64,000 nt of DNA from Candidatus Giovannonibacteria bacterium RIFCSPLOWO2_02_FULL_45_28 (GCA_001780725.1 MFIM01000001.1:19642-83641), one strand, 5' to 3'. Positions 3,693 to 52,108 are shown, counted from the first letter of the stretch. The notes: generated from the sequence alone by a model not told the origin. Made by a program: numbers and translations.

Positions 3693-3888
3693 TAAAATCA
3701 TTAGAAGAGGTCTAAACACTGCTCGAAACGGTGCATGGCTCAAAAACCTGTGGCGGATACCAAACCCATCGTTTGGGAGCACCGTCACAGGTCATAGCTC
3801 GAAAGAGCTGTGGGTAGCGCAAGCTATCGCCCAGCGGTGGGTTTTGTGTTACCGAATTTTATCAGTAATTTATAAAACACAATTTTTT
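3693..3888 (+). ncRNA. structured leader or small RNA with GNRA tetraloops and a predicted pseudoknot (riboswitch-like; class not identified)
   Basis: Hairpins AGCUC-GAAA-GAGCU, UAGC-GCAA-GCUA, CCAAAC-CCAUC-GUUUGG, CCCA-GCGG-UGGG; helix CCUGUG/CACAGG enclosing GCACCGU that pairs with upstream ACGGUGC (pseudoknot); lies between the promoter and ATG 3889. Confidence 0.3.
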
Positions 3889-32273: not shown

Positions 32274-33437
32274 TCAATTGCTCCTTATCACATCCATCAC
32301 GGCGTCGTAAGATGCATCAATTACTATCGGGTCTTTCACAAAAACTTTTTTGGCGGCATCAGGATCTTTCCATGCCGCGCCCGTTAGAGTGCAGACAATT
32401 TTGCAGCCGTCCCAAATATAAATGTCGCGCGGGATTCTCTTGATTTCTTTTATTACTCCGGCAACCGAAATTGCCGAAGACGGCTCGCAGGAAACCGGCT
32501 CCAATTCGGAAATTAACGCGTAAGCCGCCATTATTTCCTCGTCATCAGCCATATCAATTTTACCGCTTGATTCATCCCTCGCGGCTTTTGCCTCTTCCCA
32601 TTTTGCCGGATTTCCTATGCAAATTGCGCTGGCGATAGTTTTAGGATTTTCCACCGCTCTTCCTAAAACAATCGGGGCCGCGCCGACGGCCTGGTAGCCA
32701 ATCATGTGCGGGCATCTTTTGGAGCGGCCTTTTATGTAATACTCTTTATAGCCACGCCAATAAGCCGTGATGTTCCCTCCGTTCCCAACAGGAATGAAGT
32801 GATATCTTGGCGCCTCGCCCAGTTCATCCACTATTTCAAAAGCGGCGGTTTTCTGGCCTTCCGTCCTGTGTGGATTAATGGAATTGACCAGTTCTTTGTC
32901 TTTCTCTCTCAATACAACCTCTCTTACAATTTCAAGCGCCTTATCAAAATTACCTTTAATTTGTATAACTTTTGCTCCGTGACGATATGATTGGGTTAAT
33001 TTTCCCGGCGCAACATTGCCTTCCGGCAAAACAACTAAACACCTCATCCCGGCCGCTTGCGCGTACACGGCAGCAGATGCGGCCGTATTTCCGGTTGATG
33101 CGCAAATAACAACCTTTTTGCCTCTGGCGGCAGCCATGGTGATTGCGGCAGTCATACCGCGATCTTTAAAAGATCCGCTCCCGCGATTTTCTCCCTCCAG
33201 CTTCCAATAAACTTCGGAGTGAAAGTAGGGAAAAAGATCGCGAAGATAATTTTCAAAATTTTTCGCGCGCCAAAGACAGGTATTGCCCTCAAACAAAGTG
33301 ATAATTTTCTCTTTGCCCATCCACTGAATTGCAGGCGGCATCCATTCCCAATATTTATGCAGGATGCCTTTATATGGTTGCGGCAGAAATTTGTGTTTTA
33401 TCATTTCAAACTCCTCAATCCCGCCAATAGCGGACAA
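32274..33437 (-). CDS. thrC: threonine synthase (PLP-dependent, fold type II)
   Basis: GSFKDRGMTAAI (Lys-PLP motif), ...ASTGNTAASAA. Confidence 0.7.
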   Translation of the reverse strand: MSAIGGIEEFEMIKHKFLPQPYKGILHKYWEWMPPAIQWMGKEKIITLFEGNTCLWRAKNFENYLRDLFPYFHSEVYWKLEGENRGSGSFKDRGMTAAITMAAARGKKVVICASTGNTAASAAVYAQAAGMRCLVVLPEGNVAPGKLTQSYRHGAKVIQIKGNFDKALEIVREVVLREKDKELVNSINPHRTEGQKTAAFEIVDELGEAPRYHFIPVGNGGNITAYWRGYKEYYIKGRSKRCPHMIGYQAVGAAPIVLGRAVENPKTIASAICIGNPAKWEEAKAARDESSGKIDMADDEEIMAAYALISELEPVSCEPSSAISVAGVIKEIKRIPRDIYIWDGCKIVCTLTGAAWKDPDAAKKVFVKDPIVIDASYDAVMDVIRSN

Positions 33438-33471
33438 GTCTGCCCAAACTCTAGCACCGAAGAAAATAATT

Positions 33472-33807
33472 TGGAAGTGGTGGGAGTTGAACCCACGTCA
33501 GAAGAACTCGTAATCTGCGTTTGACAAGCTTAGATTTTGCCCCTGTTTACTTGCGTTGATGCAGAGCTTTTATCAACACCGCCCCGCTTATAACACCCGC
33601 GATCTCTTAGCGAGAATCAGAGACGGATGGCTTACGCTAATGCGAAAGCAAGTCCAGTGCCGCCACCAGGTTCTAGACCAAGCGCGACACGAACTTTAGA
33701 AAATAAGTTTGCACTTATTGGTTGTGCGGATGATTAAAGAGGTTAACCGTACATCCTCTGCCTGAGCGCATGATTATTTGTTCTTCCTCGAATCCAATTT
33801 CACCCCC
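33472..33807 (-). ncRNA. ssrA: tmRNA (SsrA)
   Basis: 5' GGGGGTGAAATTGGATTCGAGG...; 3' ...GACGTGGGTTCAACTCCCACCACTTCCA; acceptor GGGGGUG/CACUUCC with G3-U70; internal ORF ending ...GCTTTCGCATTAGCGTAA (AFALA-stop); adjacent to smpB. Confidence 0.85.
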
Positions 33808-40702: not shown

Positions 40703-40918
40703 CTATTCTGTGTCTTCCCATTCTGCCGGTGAAATACCGGCTTGGCGCAAAATTTCAGAAAGCAAATGCTTGGAAATATCTCCGCGATGAGGATTTGGAA
40801 TGTGCACTTTCAAATCATCCTTCGTCATAAACAAATGGCGGCCACCAGAATAAGGGCCACCGAATCCAAGCTCACGAAATTTCTGCACTAATTTTCTCCA
40901 CGAAACATTCTTAGGCAT
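40703..40918 (-). CDS. hicA: HicA-family (YcfA-like) mRNA interferase toxin
   Basis: KLVQKFRELGF...GGRHLFMTKDDLKVHIPNPHRGDISKHLLSEILRQAGI. Confidence 0.65.
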   Translation of the reverse strand: MPKNVSWRKLVQKFRELGFGGPYSGGRHLFMTKDDLKVHIPNPHRGDISKHLLSEILRQAGISPAEWEDTE

Positions 40919-41156
40919 GTCTTACAAGCTCGCGTCTATCCACCTTAATTTCAAAACCCTGCACTCTCTCGCGGTCCCTGATTTTCAAAAGCAGCCAATC
41001 TTCAAGAACCCCCCTAAGCTCCTTTCTGCAGTCTTCCAAATTTCTTGCACTCGCCCAGACGCCGCGAACGCTCGGGATTTCACCAAAATAACTCCCGTTT
41101 TTAAGAAACTTGTATTTTGCTTCTTTGAGTTTTCTTTCTACGTATTCGTTTAACAT
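40911..41156 (-). CDS. hicB: HicB-family antitoxin (UPF0150)
   Basis: YFGEIPSVRGVWASARNLEDCRKELRGVLEDWL; overlaps hicA by 8 nt. Confidence 0.6.
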   Translation of the reverse strand: MLNEYVERKLKEAKYKFLKNGSYFGEIPSVRGVWASARNLEDCRKELRGVLEDWLLLKIRDRERVQGFEIKVDRRELVRHA

Positions 41157-41272: not shown

Positions 41273-42903
41273 TCAAAACAATGAACTTTGTGCTGGCGCT
41301 TTCGGAATTGTTTCTTCTGCTTTAACGTTTTCAATACTTTTTAATAATTCCGGCCCGCCTCTATTTGCGTCTAGCAAGGCGGGTAGTTTTTTGAAATCAT
41401 TTTCCAATTCTTTTAAAACTTGGGTTGAGCGGAGGGCGGCGGCGGGGTGATACAAAGGATAAATAATTTTGGATTTAATAATTACCCCCTTCCCGTGGCC
41501 AAGCGAAATCTTTGCCGACGGTAAAAAATAGTTCATTGAAAACCTCCCCAAAGTCGCGATAATTTTGGGGTCAATAATTTGAATTTGTTTTTTCAAATAA
41601 GGTTTGTACGCCTCAATCTCCTCCGGCAAAGGATCGCGATTTTCCGGAGGACGGCGCTTTACAATATTTGTGATATACACGCTCTCTCTTGGCCATTTGA
41701 TACCCGCCAAAAGTTTATCCAGAAGTTTTCCCGCCTGCCCGACAAAAGGACGCGAGAGCTTGTCCTCATGAAACCCCGGCGCCTCACCGATAAATATTAT
41801 CTCCGCGTCCGGCCTCCCCTCCCCAAAAACCAAATTCGCCGTCCCAAGAAGCGGCAAACTCTTATCCGCCTCCATTTCTTTTTTTAATTTTTCTAATTCT
41901 TCTGCTTTACTCATTTTATTTAAAATTTTTTGCTTGATTTCAAAAGCGTTACAATGTTTCAAAATTCCTAAGTAAGACTGCAAGTTTTTGGCGTTAACTT
42001 TCTTTAATATTCTCCTTTTTGTCTTCGTTCTTAAAACTCTGTGGTATGGTAAAACAACGTAGCCCAAAAAGTCAACCCCTTGCCGTAATTTTTTAAGTAT
42101 AACTTTGTTGGGATGCAGATTCAACTTTAGTCTTTCCCGCAAAAACTCCGCGACTTCAGGCAGAAGCACCTTGAGATAATTTTCGTTTTGGTGCAGTATT
42201 ATAAAGTCGTCAGTGTATCTGAAATAATGCTTAACATTTAATTTATGTTTAACAAACTGGTCAAACTCGTTCAAATAGATATTAGCGAAAAGCTGGGAGG
42301 TAAGATTACCGATCGGAAGACCACATTTACTCTCTCTCTCTCTCTCGGTGTTTTGAGCTGAAAACTGTCAATAATTTCCTCGCAAAGCCACATGGCTTTT
42401 CTGTCTTTAATTCTTCGCGCCAAAATGTTTTTCAGTATTCGTTGGTCAACCGAATCAAAGAACTTTCTTATGTCGCATTTCAACGCAAAACATGGGCCGG
42501 AGTAATTATGGCTTACTTTTCTTGCGGCTTTTTCCAGCGCCGCTACACCTTTATGCGTTCCCTTGCCGATTCTGCAGGAAAAAGAATTGGCAATAAAGGT
42601 CGGCTCAAAAATGAGGTTAAGAACCTTAAAAACCGCGTGATGCAAGACCCTGTCGCGAACAGCGGCTTTGTGAATATGCCTTATCTTAGGGTCGTGAATA
42701 TAGAAAGAGGTGTAAGAATTATGTTTGTAAGTCATTTCCGCAAGCTGGCGATGGAGTTCAAAAAGATTGTCTTCCAGATTAAATTCAAATTCTTGAACGT
42801 CGGCATTATCCTTTTTCCCTAGTTTAAATTTTTTCCACGCTGAAAATAAATTATTTAAATCAATAATTTGTTCGAATATATGTTTATCGCTTCTCTCACT
42901 CAT
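41273..42903 (-). CDS. DGR-type reverse transcriptase fused to a C-terminal family-4 uracil-DNA glycosylase domain; reading frame broken at a (CT)n microsatellite near 42330-42346
   Basis: ORF 42903-42271: FEQIIDLNNLFSAWKKF, NSFSCRIGKGTHKGV, CDIRKFFDSVD (RT motifs 1-3). Next frame: GLPIGNLTSQLFANIYLNEFDQF, YFRYTDDFIIL (YxDD), VDFLGYVV. Then GEGRPDAEIIFIGEAPG...VYITNIVKRRPPENR...YHPAAALR (UDG family-4 motifs). Confidence 0.8.
42330..42346. repeat. (CT)7-8 dinucleotide microsatellite at the RT frameshift site
   Basis: ttta ctctctctctctctc ggtg; read as RERERE in the upstream RT frame. Confidence 0.8.
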
Positions 42904-43215
42904 AAGTTATGCGAGTTATATAAATTCTTTCACGAATGTTTAAAAACTTTTCCGAAACAAGAAAAATACTCTCTTGGACTAAAAATCGAAAACACCATTT
43001 TAGAAATTTTCGAGTATTCTCTTTCTGCCATGTATCTGCCTAAATACAAAAAGGGCGAAAAAATTAAAATGGCGAGCGATAAGGTGGACTTTTTGAAATA
43101 TCTCATTCGTTTAGCTTACGAAACCGGGTCTTTAAATGCTAAAAAGTATTTTGTGTTGGAAGAAAAAGTTTTAGAGCTAGGTAAAATAATGGGCGGCTGG
43201 TTAAAATCAGTTTAA
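42868..43215 (+). CDS. avd: Avd-like four-helix-bundle DGR accessory protein (23S rRNA IVS protein family)
   Basis: KTFPKQEKYSLGLKIENTILEIFEYSLSA...DFLKYLIRLAYETGSLNAKKYFVLEEKVLELGKIMGGWLKS; opposite strand to RT and TR. Confidence 0.65.
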   Translation: MFEYMFIASLTHKLCELYKFFHECLKTFPKQEKYSLGLKIENTILEIFEYSLSAMYLPKYKKGEKIKMASDKVDFLKYLIRLAYETGSLNAKKYFVLEEKVLELGKIMGGWLKSV

Positions 43216-43259
43216 TGCTTTTTCGCTCAAAAGGAGCGTTTATTGCGCCCCTTTTGCAT

Positions 43260-43381
43260 GAAACTACCAGAGGACGACCAGCAATGTTGTCGTTGCGGTT
43301 GTCAGACGAGTTGTAGTTGACATTGGCCAAGCCGCCGTACTTGCGATTGCCGCCGTAAAGACGGTCGGAGTCCTCAAAATT
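43260..43381 (-). repeat. DGR template repeat (TR)
   Basis: ~122 bp aligned with VR; all 17 mismatches fall where TR has A on the minus strand; TR reading frame gives ...SDRLYGGNRKYGGLANVNYNSSDNRNDNIAGRPLV with AAY (Asn) codons. Confidence 0.85.
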
Positions 43382-43618
43382 GCTCTGGGCCATCCAAATC
43401 ACCGGAAAGATAAATTTTTTAAATTATTTTTCCTGAAATCCGCGCCTGCGGATAATTTTTCAGGCGGCAGCGCCGATGCTACATCGGCGCACCCGCCACA
43501 GCCCAAAGCAAGGAGTTTCTTTTTTTCTGATTTCGCAGAGAGCAAGTGCGAGAATAAACCGTGATCTATTCTTCATTAGCCTTGCTCAAAACAATCTTAC
43601 AAAAATTTATTCAAAAAG

Positions 43619-43650
43619 AAAAGGGCTTCGAAAAATTCAGAAGCCCTTCC
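43619..43650 (-). promoter_or_regulatory. GC-rich hairpin 30-60 nt downstream of VR (DGR target-recognition stem-loop and/or intrinsic terminator)
   Basis: aagggcttc-gaaaaattca-gaagccctt, followed on the minus strand by a T-rich tract. Confidence 0.45.
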
Positions 43651-43677
43651 GAGTTCCAGGAACAATTTGACCAAGCT

Positions 43678-44547
43678 CTAGAAACTCACCAGAGGACGAC
43701 CAGCAATGCCGTCGTAGCGGTCGTCAGACGAGACGCAGCCGACACCGGCCAAGCCGCCGTACCTGCGATAGCCGCCGTAAAGACGGTCGGAGCCCCCAAA
43801 AGGATCACGGAACCACTCCCACATATTGAACCGGCCGCGGTTCGGATCATAAACATTGCCAATGAAGTTGAATTCACCGGCGCGCTCCAGACAAGTTTGA
43901 GCCCGTGTTACTCGCAGTGCCGAAGCCATGTAAGCAAGGACCACATCATCCCACTCTTTAGGTGTTATCGCAAAACGCGAACCACAAGGCGTGTTGTCGT
44001 ACTTACCGATAACTCTTAAGTCGCGGCGTAGCTTTTCAATTATTGGCGCCCATGGGTCGTTCGGAAACACCTGGCTTCCGTCGGTGTAGTCAACTCCGAC
44101 AGAAAAATCTGCAAGACACCAACGACGCTTTAAAGTTACGGCATCGGCGCTTATCTTACCTTCGCGGATTTTCTCGTAAAGCCAGCTTTCCTGTTTTGTG
44201 TAATTCTTCAAAGACCAATCCTTTGCGAGGACAAGATCAATGAAGTAAACCGGATGCATATTGTACTTGGCGGCGTTTTCTAAAAACTCCGGAGTCCAAA
44301 CGCCTGGGACGGGATCAACTTGAAGCCGCCCGAAAAACTTCTTGAGCTTTCGGCGAGCTTGCGCGACAACTTCATCTGCCCAAGCTGGCCCCTTCACAAC
44401 CGCCTCAAGCGGATTTTTTCCTTGAAGTGTGAGAGCGATGCGCTCAACCCAAAGTTCTCCATCCGGCCCAGACCACTTTTCCAACATATCCCTCTGCAAG
44501 CCAAGCAGCTTGCTCGGCAAGCAACCGACCACGTCTAATTTGGCCAT
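43678..44547 (-). CDS. DGR target protein with C-terminal C-type lectin / FGE-sulfatase-like variable domain
   Basis: 289 aa; C-terminus ...NMWEWFRDPFGGSDRLYGGYRRYGGLAGVGCVSSDDRYDGIAGRPLVSF encoded by the VR. Confidence 0.8.
   Translation of the reverse strand: MAKLDVVGCLPSKLLGLQRDMLEKWSGPDGELWVERIALTLQGKNPLEAVVKGPAWADEVVAQARRKLKKFFGRLQVDPVPGVWTPEFLENAAKYNMHPVYFIDLVLAKDWSLKNYTKQESWLYEKIREGKISADAVTLKRRWCLADFSVGVDYTDGSQVFPNDPWAPIIEKLRRDLRVIGKYDNTPCGSRFAITPKEWDDVVLAYMASALRVTRAQTCLERAGEFNFIGNVYDPNRGRFNMWEWFRDPFGGSDRLYGGYRRYGGLAGVGCVSSDDRYDGIAGRPLVSF
43681..43803 (-). repeat. DGR variable repeat (VR) at the 3' end of the target gene
   Basis: Counterpart of TR; conserved GC-rich 3' end ...GCTGGTCGTCCTCTGGT(G)AGTTTC (IMH-like) abuts the stop codon. 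Confidence 0.85.
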
Positions 44548-44648
44548 GGTCAGCCTCCTTTCTTTTTGTTAAATAACCCGCCTTGCCTGGATCAAAGGCC
44601 CCAGGTTCGCCTTTTAAGGTTTCTGGCTTAATTATACTCCCGAAGTAC

Positions 44649-45371
44649 CTATTTGTCAATAGTGATTTTTGACCGCAGATACTCTCTGTTTTTAATTATA
44701 TGAATCAGCGTCGGCAGGCTGGAGAGGACGATAATGGCTAAAATTATCGGGATTAAATATTTATCAATGCCTGGAATTGTGGCGCCCAAAAAATATCCAA
44801 GCCATGTCATACCAAGCGCCCAAAGAAAAGCCCCGACAACATTATAAAAAAAGAATGTCCTGTAATGCATCTGCCCGACCCCGGCCAAAATCGGCGCGAA
44901 TGTGCGGACAACCGGCAAAAAACGGGCGAGCACAAGAGTTTTTGCGCCGTATTTTTCATAAAAAACCTTGGCGCGTTCAAGGTGGTCTTTGTGGAATAAA
45001 AGAGAATCTTCGCGGCTGAAAATCGCCGGCCCAACTTTTCTGCCAAAAGCATATCCAAAATTGTCCCCCAAAATCGCGGCGACAAAAACCAGAAAAGCCA
45101 AAATCCAAATGTTCAAAAAACCCTGCGACGCCAAAAAACCCGCCGTAAACAGCAAAGAGTCTCCGGGCAGGAAAAAACCGATGAAAAGCCCCGATTCAGC
45201 AAAAATTATGCCGAAAAGGCCCAAATATCCGACGGTCTGTATAAGTAAAATTAGGTCAAAGCCGATTAAAGAGTCCATGAGTTTAAGTTTAACAAAAAAT
45301 AGAGTAAAATAAACACCATGAGCACTCAACTGCACACAAAAACAATCGCCGAAGTCATTGAGATTGTGCAT
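44649..45371 (-). CDS. DedA/VTT-domain membrane protein
   Basis: GYLGLFGIIFAESGLFIGFFLPGDSLLFTAGFLASQG. Confidence 0.8.
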   Translation of the reverse strand: MHNLNDFGDCFCVQLSAHGVYFTLFFVKLKLMDSLIGFDLILLIQTVGYLGLFGIIFAESGLFIGFFLPGDSLLFTAGFLASQGFLNIWILAFLVFVAAILGDNFGYAFGRKVGPAIFSREDSLLFHKDHLERAKVFYEKYGAKTLVLARFLPVVRTFAPILAGVGQMHYRTFFFYNVVGAFLWALGMTWLGYFLGATIPGIDKYLIPIILAIIVLSSLPTLIHIIKNREYLRSKITIDK

Positions 45372-49564: not shown

Positions 49565-50152
49565 TTATGCTTTAACAACTTTTCCTTTTTTAACCATTTC
49601 CAAAACTTTTTCTACCAAGCGTTTCGGGTCGGAGTCGTAAACGATATTACCCGGGCCGCGTTGTGATTTTTCAATAATGTCTCTGATAACTTCTGTAGAG
49701 CCGCCGGAACCCTCCAAAACGCCGATTGGCTTTCCGTCTTCAAGCGCGATGGTAAACTCGTTGATGGTCCCCCAGCGGCCACAGCCGAATATCACGGCAT
49801 CGGCCGAACGGGTTAGAAGCAAATTTCTTCCGGAATATCCAAAGCCGGTGTAAACAATAATATCCATATAATCCATCGGCAGTTTATAAGTCTCAATATG
49901 TTCTTTTTCCGAACCGGCTGGAGAAAGGCCGATGGTAAAACCGTCAGCTTCTTTCGCGCCGATCGCCGCCCAAAAAGGAAAACCTGTTGTGGCGCCGTTT
50001 ACCAAAACAGCGTTATTTTTTGCCACCCAGTGCCCCAATTCTTTTGCCTTATCCAGCGCGTCCGGCGCGCAATGCCCCGTATCCGCCGCCCCGGACACGC
50101 AGATTTTATACTTCAAATGTATATGCTTTCCGTCCATTCTCACATTATACAC
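49565..50152 (-). CDS. LOG/TIGR00725-family Rossmann-fold nucleotide-binding protein
   Basis: ICVSGAADTGHCAPDALDKAKELGHWVAKNNAVLVNGATTG... Confidence 0.55.
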   Translation of the reverse strand: MYNVRMDGKHIHLKYKICVSGAADTGHCAPDALDKAKELGHWVAKNNAVLVNGATTGFPFWAAIGAKEADGFTIGLSPAGSEKEHIETYKLPMDYMDIIVYTGFGYSGRNLLLTRSADAVIFGCGRWGTINEFTIALEDGKPIGVLEGSGGSTEVIRDIIEKSQRGPGNIVYDSDPKRLVEKVLEMVKKGKVVKA

Positions 50153-50242
50153 AATTTCTTAAAAACTTTCATCCTTAACTTATACCCATTACAATGTCTC
50201 AAAACCCCGAGATAAGATTGTAAATTTTTATTGCTCACTTTT

Positions 50243-50410
50243 TTAAATATTCTCTTTTTGAAATTCTAATTTAAGCTCGTTTTTCAGAAACAACGCAATT
50301 ATCGGCAAAAGTTCCTTGAGATAACTCTCGTTTTGGTGCAAGATAATAAAGTCGTCCGTGTATCTAAAATAATGCTTAACTTTTAATTTGTGTTTAATAA
50401 ACTGGTCAAG
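50243..50410 (-). pseudogene. remnant of a second DGR-type reverse transcriptase (motif 5 region only)
   Basis: Reverse strand encodes DQFIKHKLKVKHYFRYTDDFIILHQNESYLKELLPIIALFLKNELKLEFQKENI-stop; about 85% nucleotide identity to 42160-42265 of the RT gene; no upstream RT motifs. Confidence 0.7.
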
Positions 50411-50482
50411 AACTATCCAAAATGACCAACGGCGGGACCGGTTGTATTAGCCATCTCAAGTCTATAAAATTTCAGCAAAATT

Positions 50483-50516
50483 AAAAAGGGGGCAGTAAAA
50501 TTACCAACCCCCTTTC
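50483..50516 (-). terminator. intrinsic terminator downstream of ORF 50552-50851
   Basis: Minus strand AAAGGGGG-ttggtaattttactg-CCCCCTTT followed by TTTAATTTT. Confidence 0.45.
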
Positions 50517-50551
50517 AAAAGTTTAAAATAAAAAAGAAACAAGATTAAAAA

Positions 50552-50851
50552 TCAGGAAACTACCTCGCGGGCGCGCAAGCAGTCGCGGGCGCGGGACGGA
50601 CCGTAGCAATTCACGTTCATCCCACTGCAGTAGCTGAACCAGTAGACGCCCGGCACGCGGCCAACGGAGCCGCGCGAACCGGAGCAAAGAGTGATATTCT
50701 GAATGTCCAGATGCTTGCCGGTCTCGTCATGATACTTGAGCTCGTATATCGCGCGCTCTGTAAACGTGATGCCGGGAATCTTCATCCCGCCGAGGTCGTT
50801 GGCGGAACGATTTTTGAGTTCCTTATCCGCTTCGACCCTTTCGCGAACCAA
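50552..50851 (-). CDS. hypothetical protein
   Basis: 99-aa ORF; no recognisable motifs. Confidence 0.3.
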   Translation of the reverse strand: MVRERVEADKELKNRSANDLGGMKIPGITFTERAIYELKYHDETGKHLDIQNITLCSGSRGSVGRVPGVYWFSYCSGMNVNCYGPSRARDCLRAREVVS

Positions 50852-50879: not shown

Positions 50880-51104
50880 TTATAGCAATTTAATAAACTC
50901 GTCTACGGATATTTCCAAATCATTAATAATTCCTTTTAGGATTTTTCTTTTTAAATCTCGGCCGGAATGAACTGGAACAGTAACTCGCCTGCCGTCTAGA
51001 TGCTTAAACTGCGCGTGACTGCCAACTTGGTGGTGCTTAAAAAATCCAAGTTTCTCTAAAACCCGGATAAGTTCTTTGGTTTTAATAATAGGAAGTTTGG
51101 GCAC
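50880..51104 (-). CDS. hicA: HicA-family toxin (second copy)
   Basis: KELIRVLEKLGFFKHHQVGSHAQFKHLDGRRVTVPVHSGRDLKRKILKGIINDLEIS. Confidence 0.65.
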   Translation of the reverse strand: MPKLPIIKTKELIRVLEKLGFFKHHQVGSHAQFKHLDGRRVTVPVHSGRDLKRKILKGIINDLEISVDEFIKLL

Positions 51105-51109
51105 AAAAC

Positions 51110-51361
51110 CTAGGCACGACTTATAGCTAATTCTTTTGCTGAAAATGATTGAATCATCTCCAGCGCCTCCTCTTCTTGTGGAATTAACTCATTATCTTTA
51201 GCCAAACCCTGGATATGGCATTTAATAGCCTCTTTTAAATTCTGTTTAACTTCTTCTAAAGATTCTCCGTAAACATGAACACCTCTTAAAAGAGGGGCAA
51301 ATCCGTGGTATCCCCCATTTTCCTCTGGCTCAACTATAATTCTAAAAGAATACAGCTCCAT
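51110..51361 (-). CDS. hicB: HicB-family antitoxin (second copy)
   Basis: YSFRIIVEPEENGGYHGFAPLLRGVHVYGESLEEVKQNLKEAIKCHIQGL. Confidence 0.6.
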   Translation of the reverse strand: MELYSFRIIVEPEENGGYHGFAPLLRGVHVYGESLEEVKQNLKEAIKCHIQGLAKDNELIPQEEEALEMIQSFSAKELAISRA

Positions 51362-51508: not shown

Positions 51509-51904
51509 TCAAAACAAGTCGGGAATACCAACCTTTTTGTAAAACTTATCAAACGATAAAATGCAATCCAGCCGATAACTTTTTACCAAAGCGGCATTAA
51601 AACGATCTATCCACGATACGCCTCTTTCTTTTCGTGTTAAAAAAATCTTATCGGCTTGCTCGATGGTCGCTTTATCCATTGGGAGTTCAATAAAGTTTTT
51701 CTGCCGCAATGATGTTAGTAATGCCCTTGCAGCGTTTTGTGATACTTTGTAAGAGAGCACCGTTACCGCTTCAGAAACAGTAAATGGAGTAATAAAAATG
51801 GTGGCATCTTTTAATTCCGCCACTTTTACTAATGCCTTTTGATGGTTGGAGTCATCTTCTTTGGCAAGCGCAACCAGAAAATCAGCGTCAACAAGCGCTC
51901 TCAT
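51509..51904 (-). CDS. vapC: PIN-domain toxin VapC
   Basis: MRALVDADFLVALAKEDDSNHQKA...; conserved acidic residues D6, E?, D95-like. Confidence 0.8.
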   Translation of the reverse strand: MRALVDADFLVALAKEDDSNHQKALVKVAELKDATIFITPFTVSEAVTVLSYKVSQNAARALLTSLRQKNFIELPMDKATIEQADKIFLTRKERGVSWIDRFNAALVKSYRLDCILSFDKFYKKVGIPDLF

Positions 51905-51907
51905 AAA

Positions 51908-52108
51908 TTACGCGTACAAATAATTATCTAATTTAGAAGATAGGTTTTTTGGTCCTCCGTGAAGCTTTAATCGTGCGATGCCTTTCAGTTCATCAAGGTG
52001 TTTTGTGACCCATAATTTCTTAACTAAAAACCAGCGCAATTCTTTCTCTGCTTGCTCTTTTTCGCCAAGCAATTCTTTGTACTCTTTTTCAAGTAATAGT
52101 TGTGTCAT
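51908..52108 (-). CDS. VapB-like antitoxin (small helical protein upstream of vapC)
   Basis: 66 aa, 4-nt gap to vapC. Confidence 0.4.
   Translation of the reverse strand: MTQLLLEKEYKELLGEKEQAEKELRWFLVKKLWVTKHLDELKGIARLKLHGGPKNLSSKLDNYLYA

Follow-up and report, generated by a model that had tools for sequence, protein, structure and literature searches.

A diversity-generating retroelement with a broken reverse-transcriptase gene

The 64,000-nucleotide stretch of Candidatus Giovannonibacteria bacterium RIFCSPLOWO2_02_FULL_45_28 that was analysed here (GCA_001780725.1, MFIM01000001.1:19642-83641; referred to as the window, with positions counted from its first letter) carries a diversity-generating retroelement (DGR) at 41273-44547. 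The DGR assignment of the locus is strongly supported. In the reading that we consider probable, it is a chromosomal element of the type found in bacteria of the Candidate Phyla Radiation (CPR; Patescibacteria), its reverse transcriptase (RT) gene has been broken by one extra AG unit and the element is now off. Its two variable repeats (VR1, in the window, and VR2, elsewhere in the genome) would then be frozen records of earlier homing, and the in-frame join of the RT to a uracil-DNA glycosylase (UDG) is most likely to be read-through.

The locus order, 5' to 3' on the minus strand, is target gene with VR, template repeat (TR), avd (antisense) and RT. An original prediction made from the sequence had called this a complete DGR. 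The DGR part of that claim stands, given the adenine-specific TR/VR pair, the Avd and a Brt-like RT. Completeness does not, because the RT open reading frame (ORF) is interrupted by a frameshift, the VRs are apparently frozen and the RT frame is joined to a housekeeping UDG. Deposited proteins identical to those of the window are carried by Candidatus Giovannonibacteria genomes from the Rifle aquifer.

The template and variable repeats

The features that define the repeat pair are as follows.

43678-44547, minus strand: target gene T1 (289 aa), with a helical N-terminal part and a C-terminal C-type-lectin (CLec) fold of the formylglycine-generating enzyme (FGE) type
43687-43803, minus strand: VR1, the last 39 codons of T1 in the repeat, with 18 differences from TR, all at TR adenines
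43688-43706, minus strand: 3' end of VR resembling an initiation of mutagenic homing (IMH) site, a 19-nt adenine-free stretch (TTGCTGGTCGTCCTCTGGT) that is identical in TR
43265-43381, minus strand: TR, non-coding; of its 28 adenines, 27 occupy the first or second codon position in the VR frame

The two repeats lie where they had been predicted and are direct repeats with an offset of 422 nt. Their core (TR 43379-43266 and VR 43801-43688 on the minus strand; 114 nt) is 87% identical in an ungapped alignment, and all 15 of its mismatches are at TR adenines. When the alignment is extended to 117 nt (43381-43265) and the substitutions are tabulated by TR base, 18 of 18 mismatches fall at A (13 A>G, three A>T and two A>C); with 28 adenines in 117 nt, the hypergeometric probability of this outcome is 2e-14. 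The copy at 43.3 kb is identified as TR because all of the mismatches fall where that copy has A. The A-only pattern had thus been recognized correctly in the original prediction, but its count of 17 differences had not, and the interval that it used (43260-43381) includes three non-A differences, at 43264, 43263 and 43260. These leave the A-only pattern unbroken since they are located past the end of the repeat, where VR (CTGGTGAGTTTC) and TR (CTGGT-AGTTTC) diverge. After the shared 19-nt stretch VR continues as GAGTTTC and TR, which is 1 nt shorter, as AGTTTC; the same 1-nt offset recurs in related loci.

VR1 was thought to cover the last ~40 codons of the target and to end at its stop codon. 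It does take up 39 C-terminal codons, but it ends 9 nt ahead of the stop of the 289-aa ORF. The AAY codons noticed in the TR frame number eight. VR1 is the sole copy in the window, where no further VR was found. An 87-aa ORF that runs over TR was rejected as a gene and is an artefact of the repeat.

These parts suggest how the element would work with an intact RT. A complex of Avd and RT would copy the TR-bearing RNA, random bases would go in opposite the TR adenines, and the cDNA would take the place of VR up to a boundary set by the adenine-free IMH-like end. About 17 codons would be recoded on the ligand-binding face of an FGE-type C-type-lectin protein that is predicted to be cytoplasmic. 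The same TR would formerly have served a remote paralogous target outside the window, which carries VR2. The (GA)n repeat just before motif 4 of the RT holds the extra AG unit, with which translation would end ahead of the catalytic motifs and the element would be off.

The reverse transcriptase is frameshifted at a dinucleotide repeat

The RT region consists of the following parts.

42271-42903, minus strand: 5' part of the RT, a 210-aa ORF with the N-terminus and motifs 1-3, of which the last 23 codons are out-of-frame read-through to the TGA at 42271
42330-42346, minus strand: G(AG)8 dinucleotide repeat, one AG unit above the in-frame (AG)7 of a sister species, a +2 shift of the RT frame
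41915-42329, minus strand: 3' part of the RT in the other frame, with motif 4 (GLPIGNLTSQLFANIY), the YTDD box and the thumb
41273-41914, minus strand: family-4 UDG, 213 aa from its own ATG at 41914, in frame with the 3' part of the RT and with no stop between them

The genuine RT sequence of the 210-aa ORF stops at the simple-sequence repeat (SSR), and the RT resumes at motif 4 in a second ORF (41273-42274, 333 aa), the frameshift falling between motifs 3 and 4. Deletion in silico of one AG unit gives a 542-aa protein with a junction (PRERESKCGLPIGN) identical to that of the intact 331-aa RT of the sister species (P0005). The whole of this interval had been taken for RT, whereas its last 213 codons (41273-41914) encode the UDG. 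The Brt-like motifs 1-7 that had been quoted are all present, although they are spread over two reading frames. Motif 4 reads IGNLTSQ and is of the DGR-clade type ([IL]GxxxSQ). Among solved structures the best match is to entries 8ub7-8ube (2.3e-39 and 138 bits for 8ub7), a 328-aa RT that we take to be the Bordetella phage bRT. The matches to group II intron RTs (1.6e-18) and to a retron RT (2e-4) are much weaker, which places the RT nearer to Brt than to either of these.

An error of sequencing or assembly in a gene that is really intact could give the same picture, as dinucleotide repeats are prone to miscalling. The G(AG)8 tract is, however, identical in entries from JGI, ENA (MEGAHIT) and NCBI (GW2011 and RIFCSP genomes) and in those derived from reads, over many samples. 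It occurs on contigs of at least seven samples and several assemblers; seven such contigs of differing origin match at 100% over the frameshift, the 210-aa ORF is present on 50 public contigs, each with G(AG)8, and the same pipelines assemble the (AG)7 tract of the sister species correctly. Because the same tract recurs across samples and assemblers, the frameshift is not regarded as an assembly error, and we consider that explanation extremely improbable. No intact version of the RT of the window population was found among 5.8 billion clusters.

Two further candidates for a source of functional RT were rejected. An RT split into two polypeptides is contradicted by the second ORF, which has no start codon before motif 4 and whose product would lack GLPIGNLTSQ. 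For a second RT acting in trans, the window and the neighbourhood of the remote target were searched: besides the RT of the element, the window yields just one decayed RT fragment, and neither RT nor Avd adjoins the remote target.

Two static variable repeats and a sister species with turnover

The remote target is the following gene.

8001-8870 of L095/L096 (GCA_001778935.1, MFIR01000010.1), outside the window: second target gene T2 (P0370, A3G55_01220), 289 aa

T2 is 85% identical to T1 in nucleotide sequence and is found in the same genomes (in which T1 is A3G55_01540), ~59-64 genes from the DGR. It is flanked by genes for an APH kinase and a 3-methyladenine DNA glycosylase, with no RT or Avd beside it. 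Its variable repeat, VR2, matches the TR of the window with differences at 12 adenines, and ends in the same IMH-like stretch.

This is a two-target DGR in which each VR is invariant. In comparisons between contigs, which for both the VRs and the AG tract were made at the level of the assembly consensus, there is one VR1 sequence on 32 contigs and one VR2 sequence on ~35, and mosaics of T1 and T2 are the only variants. Over 10,870 positions one contig, L007, has 21 differences from the window, of which 20 fall in VR. Its VR was rejected as a population variant of the window locus, as it is the VR2 of the paralogous T2 in the same genome (OGF50568.1 versus OGF49334.1). T1/T2 mosaics are seen in L007 and in several short contigs, some with hybrid VRs (P0375 and P0376); these mosaics are either assembly chimeras or products of gene conversion.

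The sister species (L010 and L097-L100; GCA_001001105.1 and Rifle metagenomes) has an in-frame RT and shows at least four VR alleles at a single locus in four contig sets. Between two of its contigs, L098 and L010, there are 14 differences over 7,876 nt, and none of them falls outside VR. Of the 24 variable columns among the sister alleles, 23 are TR adenines, while TR and the flanks are identical. In the same aquifer, the sister element with an intact RT is therefore turning over and the frameshifted element is static. Because VR1 and VR2 are invariant while the VR of the in-frame sister varies at TR adenines, the element in the window is best read as a standard CPR DGR that has been switched off.

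The full RT could alternatively be made from (AG)8 by recoding, either through RNA polymerase slippage that drops an AG unit or through a +2 ribosomal slip, in which case the DGR would be active at a low level. A +2 shift on a 2-nt repeat would re-pair the P-site tRNA perfectly and restore the RT frame, and the downstream frame is intact. The tract is accompanied by neither a stimulatory structure nor a slippery heptamer, however, and the stasis of the VRs over ~70 contigs speaks against activity; we judge recoding to be improbable.

Several observations weigh against the conclusion that the element is a DGR which is simply off, with frozen VRs and an incidental UDG. Neither RT half has a stop or any lesion beyond the one slip, and for this reason the frameshift must be either recent or reversible. 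GA repeats recur in the RT genes of related DGRs, in at least four separate clades of a rough RT tree, and because of this recurrence the tract may be no accident but a switch. VR2 carries two non-adenine differences from TR, a G>C and a G>T, next to mutated adenines; such non-A changes are reported to be frequent in CPR DGRs. The 5' edges of VR1 (TTCCGTGATCCT) and VR2 (TTTGAAGATGTT) differ (43807-43810, 43776 and 43788) where TR (GCCCAGAGCAAT) cannot template the difference; the VR2 edge looks ancestral, because the VR of the sister species matches VR2 there. The RT-UDG fusion is also found unbroken (483-528 aa) in a further three lineages (P0002-P0004; identity 64-65%), where an indel of 3 nt at the junction leaves the frame intact, and the bRT-Avd complex prefers dUTP ~10-fold over TTP (Handa 2018, PMC6182149). 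Since the fusion is intact in three lineages and bRT-Avd has this preference, there may be a functional link between RT and UDG. Finally, a minority of (AG)7 'on' cells, or micro-heterogeneity of the VRs below the consensus level, may exist in the population.

GA repeats in reverse-transcriptase genes of related elements

Dinucleotide repeats of at least 12 nt number nine in 630 kb of related loci (L010 and L014 being counted once), and eight of the nine lie in RT ORFs, which make up ~13% of the sequence (binomial P~4e-6). They occupy two sites. The first, just before motif 4, measures 14 nt in the sister species, 16 in the window, 20 in L031 (4543-4562) and 22 in L030 (1233-1254), and RERERE is also encoded before motif 4 in P0006 and P0018. 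The second, where the 5' ends of RT and avd overlap, measures 16-36 nt (L041:3940-3975, L074:3979-3994, L083:3964-3983 and L084:3956-3977). The long, perfect GA/CT repeats (16-36 nt) belong to CPR DGRs that are unrelated to one another and always read RERERE in the RT frame, and the 630 kb contain one comparable repeat elsewhere.

This distribution raises the possibility that the (GA)n tract is a contingency locus, at which slipped-strand mispairing toggles the RT and with it the whole DGR, so that rare (AG)7 revertants diversify VR. The tract of the window is exactly one unit away from the in-frame tract of the sister species, and the lack of any other RT lesion and the concentration of repeats at two sites in at least four clades would also fit. 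Set against this, the assemblies give no sign of repeat-length variation within either population: all ~50 contigs of the window population have (AG)8 and all 27-40 contigs of the sister have (AG)7. New VR1 or VR2 alleles are likewise absent, and the RERERE repeats are in insertion-tolerant loops and might be neutral expansions. We therefore regard such toggling as a tentative explanation, with the balance clearly on the side of a DGR that is now off. The broader proposal that GA/CT repeats in the RT gene are a recurrent and independently evolved on/off switch for CPR DGRs, with the window 'off' and its VRs frozen and the sister 'on' with its four or more VR alleles, is equally doubtful at present. 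In the literature searched, nothing was found that links DGRs with simple-sequence repeats or phase variation.

The join between the reverse transcriptase and a uracil-DNA glycosylase

The UDG domain comprises residues 121-333 of the second ORF. It matches PF03167 (1.6e-32) and TIGR00758 (166.5 bits, against a cut-off of 125.3), and solved enzymes at 3e-43 (the Sulfolobus tokodaii UDG) and 2e-36. The GEAPG, PFVG and HPAA motifs are kept in alignments with 4zbx and 1ui0. The domain has no Cys: where 4zbx has its four [4Fe-4S] ligands (two N-terminal ones and those in VKCRPP and ACSPYL), it has D/S, R and Y.

In the sister genome the UDG stands alone, right after a gene for a VTT-domain protein, and its N-terminus is equal to the junction sequence of the window. 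The L008 lineage, which has a fusion, has an MFS gene downstream, as in the window. A further Giovannonibacteria genome (L049) has a DGR at the same locus, VTT-[DGR]-UDG-MFS-PolX, and here RT and UDG overlap by 16 nt and are out of frame. None of ~75 other CPR DGR loci has a UDG within 4 kb, and when 1.84 billion representatives were searched with the intact fusion, none matched in both the RT and the UDG half. Other CPR RTs of the DGR type are fused in frame to different downstream genes, namely those for the DNA polymerase III delta subunit (holA; two clusters) and a transglutaminase-like protein (P0220, P0230 and P0248). Because the overlap in L049 is out of frame, no UDG is found at the other loci and RTs elsewhere run into other genes, the RT-UDG fusion is most likely a lineage-specific read-through that arose from gene packing, and would not be a dedicated part of the mutagenesis machinery.

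The alternative is that the fusion works in mutagenesis, either by dUMP incorporation opposite TR adenines, uracil removal and abasic repair, giving A-to-N changes, or by UDG processing of the cDNA for integration. Excision of dU has been discussed as a path to adenine mutagenesis, and its role at high dUTP was left open (Handa et al. 2018, PMC6182149). The intact fusions in three other lineages, in which the frame is kept over the 3-nt indel, the retained UDG catalytic motifs and the dUTP preference of bRT-Avd are in keeping with such a role. The adjacency has a single origin, however, at one syntenic Giovannonibacteria locus, and the junction coincides exactly with the UDG's native start codon. 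The sister species diversifies its VR at adenines without a fusion, and neither the empty surveys of other loci and proteins nor the RTs that run into holA and the transglutaminase gene would be expected if the UDG were a working part. A mutagenic role for the fusion thus appears unlikely, well below the chance that we give to slippage-driven toggling, and read-through remains our preferred explanation of the join.

The RT itself looks mosaic. It is mostly closest to the sister RT (73%), while its C-terminal tail (41915-41960), EIKQKILNK-M, resembles the KVEQKILK-M of the fused L008 lineage and is unlike the KLRVKVFERLGIM* of the sister. As the tail and the rest of the RT have different nearest relatives, recombination that kept the fusion junction is suggested.

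The target protein and its neighbouring signals

The C-terminus of T1, which contains the VR, has a CLec/FGE fold, as had been predicted, and the VR is placed at the 3' end of the target gene within that fold. Searches with the T1 sequence against Pfam, NCBIfam and the PDB gave no match; the T1 family is confined to CPR bacteria and is without a Pfam model. The absence of a signal peptide was likewise borne out, and T1 has no transmembrane (TM) segment either (maximum hydropathy 1.03). The protein is apparently cytoplasmic. Rfam has no family within the DGR region. The signals around T1 and TR are as follows.

44631-44659, minus strand: sigma-70-type promoter of T1, TTGACA-17-TATAAT, 12/12, a match to the consensus only
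43618-43650, minus strand: stem-loop GGAAGGGCTTC...GAAGCCCTTTTC with a stem of 10-11 bp, followed by a T-run
43463-43497: GC-rich inverted repeat with 16-nt arms and a 3-nt loop, between the T1 terminator and TR
43229-43255: stem-loop 10 nt past TR, where the convergent avd has its 3' end; terminator-like on the plus strand

A hairpin after VR had been noted in the original prediction next to the IMH-like stretch. It does exist (43650-43618), but because a T-run comes after the stem it is read here as a terminator, and on these sequence features it is probably the intrinsic terminator of T1. It may also have a role like that of the post-IMH hairpin of Bordetella. Stem-loops within 60 nt after both TR and VR are common in the related group, with minimum free energies of -14.6 and -14.9 against a background of -10.1 (p~1e-8), and a stem-loop at the post-TR place is common in 60 related loci.

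Avd and the CPR architecture

The Avd gene lies between TR and RT.

42868-43215, plus strand: avd, with a start at TTG 42868 (115 aa) or at ATG 42880; runs antisense to TR and RT and overlaps the RT start by 24-36 nt at its 5' end

Its product matches PF22296 (bAvd) with 59.9 bits against a cut-off of 40 (4e-16 in Pfam) and NF033474 with 69.9, under the cut-off of 80. The proposed Avd-family gene on the opposite strand is thereby substantiated, and its orientation is the usual CPR layout rather than a peculiarity. In 80 related CPR loci avd is almost always antisense and directly upstream of the RT start, often overlapping it, and in at least 60 of the 80 a diagonal scan for TR and VR finds a VR followed 400-500 nt on by a TR, with mismatches that are near-purely A-specific. 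Counted over 84 related CPR loci, 60 or more keep the whole order VR, TR, (avd), RT together with A-specific mismatches. The architecture B3, 'TR-(avd)-RT', accounts for 90% of CPR DGRs (Wu et al. 2018, PMC5758913), and the targets of the Patescibacteria-restricted clade 2 are without recognizable domains (Roux et al. 2021, PMC8144416). Because the B3 layout and clade 2 both match, an opposite-strand Avd and an apparently cytoplasmic target are normal for the group.

Comparison with known systems

The element resembles other DGRs of CPR bacteria in many respects. It has the gene order, strands and overlapping antisense avd of B3 (Wu et al. 2018, PMC5758913) and clade 2 (Roux et al. 2021, PMC8144416). 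As in those elements, VR precedes TR by ~420-500 nt, the target lacks both a TM segment and a known domain, non-A changes occur occasionally and the sequences come from the same aquifer data sets. It differs from them in that its RT is interrupted by an SSR frameshift and that the RT frame is fused to a UDG. Work by Paul et al. from 2017 is also said to deal with the DGRs of CPR (Patescibacteria).

With the DGR of Bordetella phage BPP-1 (mtd-avd-TR-brt) it shares A-specific transfer from TR to VR, a C-terminal VR in a CLec-fold protein, an Avd together with an RT that has IGxxxSQ, and an A-free IMH-like end. Unlike BPP-1, it is chromosomal rather than phage-borne, its target is apparently cytoplasmic, and its avd is on the opposite strand between TR and RT. 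Because of this position of avd, the region downstream of TR is antisense avd and not a dedicated spacer as in BPP-1. The FGE-type CLec variable protein TvpA of Treponema denticola (2Y3C) has 15% identity to the target; TvpA is a lipoprotein, whereas the target in the window has no export signal. The Treponema DGR has an HRDC accessory architecture (Wu 2018, PMC5758913).

The tract can be compared with SSR contingency loci (those of Neisseria, Haemophilus and Campylobacter, and phase-variable methyltransferases), in which a perfect tandem repeat in a coding region likewise sets the frame. In contrast to these, the repeat in the window is a dinucleotide of only eight units, and no switching is observed in the window population. 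The UDG resembles family-4 enzymes (Thermus UDGA, 1UI0, and that of S. tokodaii, 4ZBX) in scoring above the TIGR00758 cut-off and in its GEAPG, PFVG and HPAA motifs, and differs from both in lacking all four Fe-S cysteines and in being translated in frame with an RT.

Other features of the window

The remains of a second, different DGR lie at 50100-50851 on the minus strand. They consist of an orphan ORF for a target C-terminus (50552-50851, 99 aa, ending in ...CLRAREVVS), homologous to the targets of L013, L023 and L021 (tblastn 1e-27 to 1e-29), and an RT fragment (50100-50446; YFRYTDDFIILHQNESYL...) that is like P0009 and P0010 and has an internal deletion of ~95 nt. The window holds no TR or avd partner for them. 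They are directly upstream of an LDcluster4 gene, which is the site of the intact DGR in the sister genome.

Two HicA/HicB toxin-antitoxin pairs, one directly downstream of RT-UDG and the other beside the decayed DGR, and a PIN/VapC-like pair are present on the minus strand (40703-41156, 50880-51361 and 51509-52108). The window also contains a LOOT RNA (3709-3828, plus strand; Rfam RF03000, 82 bits) and a transfer-messenger RNA (tmRNA) gene (33471-33807, minus strand); an overlapping permuted-tmRNA call by ARAGORN (33061-33563) is without Rfam support.

Implications

The element itself is ordinary, as the DGRs of CPR bacteria are already well catalogued. Its interest lies in the natural on/off comparison that it offers within one aquifer, between a frameshifted RT with two invariant VRs and an in-frame sister RT with several VR alleles. 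A GA tract that is prone to slippage and is met repeatedly in RT genes across several CPR lineages offers a concrete candidate for a switch that regulates DGRs; if this is true, a hypermutable repeat would gate a hypermutation machine. A weaker, additional reading is that uracil excision and cDNA synthesis are coupled through a conserved RT-UDG fusion. The comparative evidence favours an accidental fusion, but the intact RT-UDG fusions would provide a ready-made test of dUTP incorporation and uracil excision in adenine mutagenesis.

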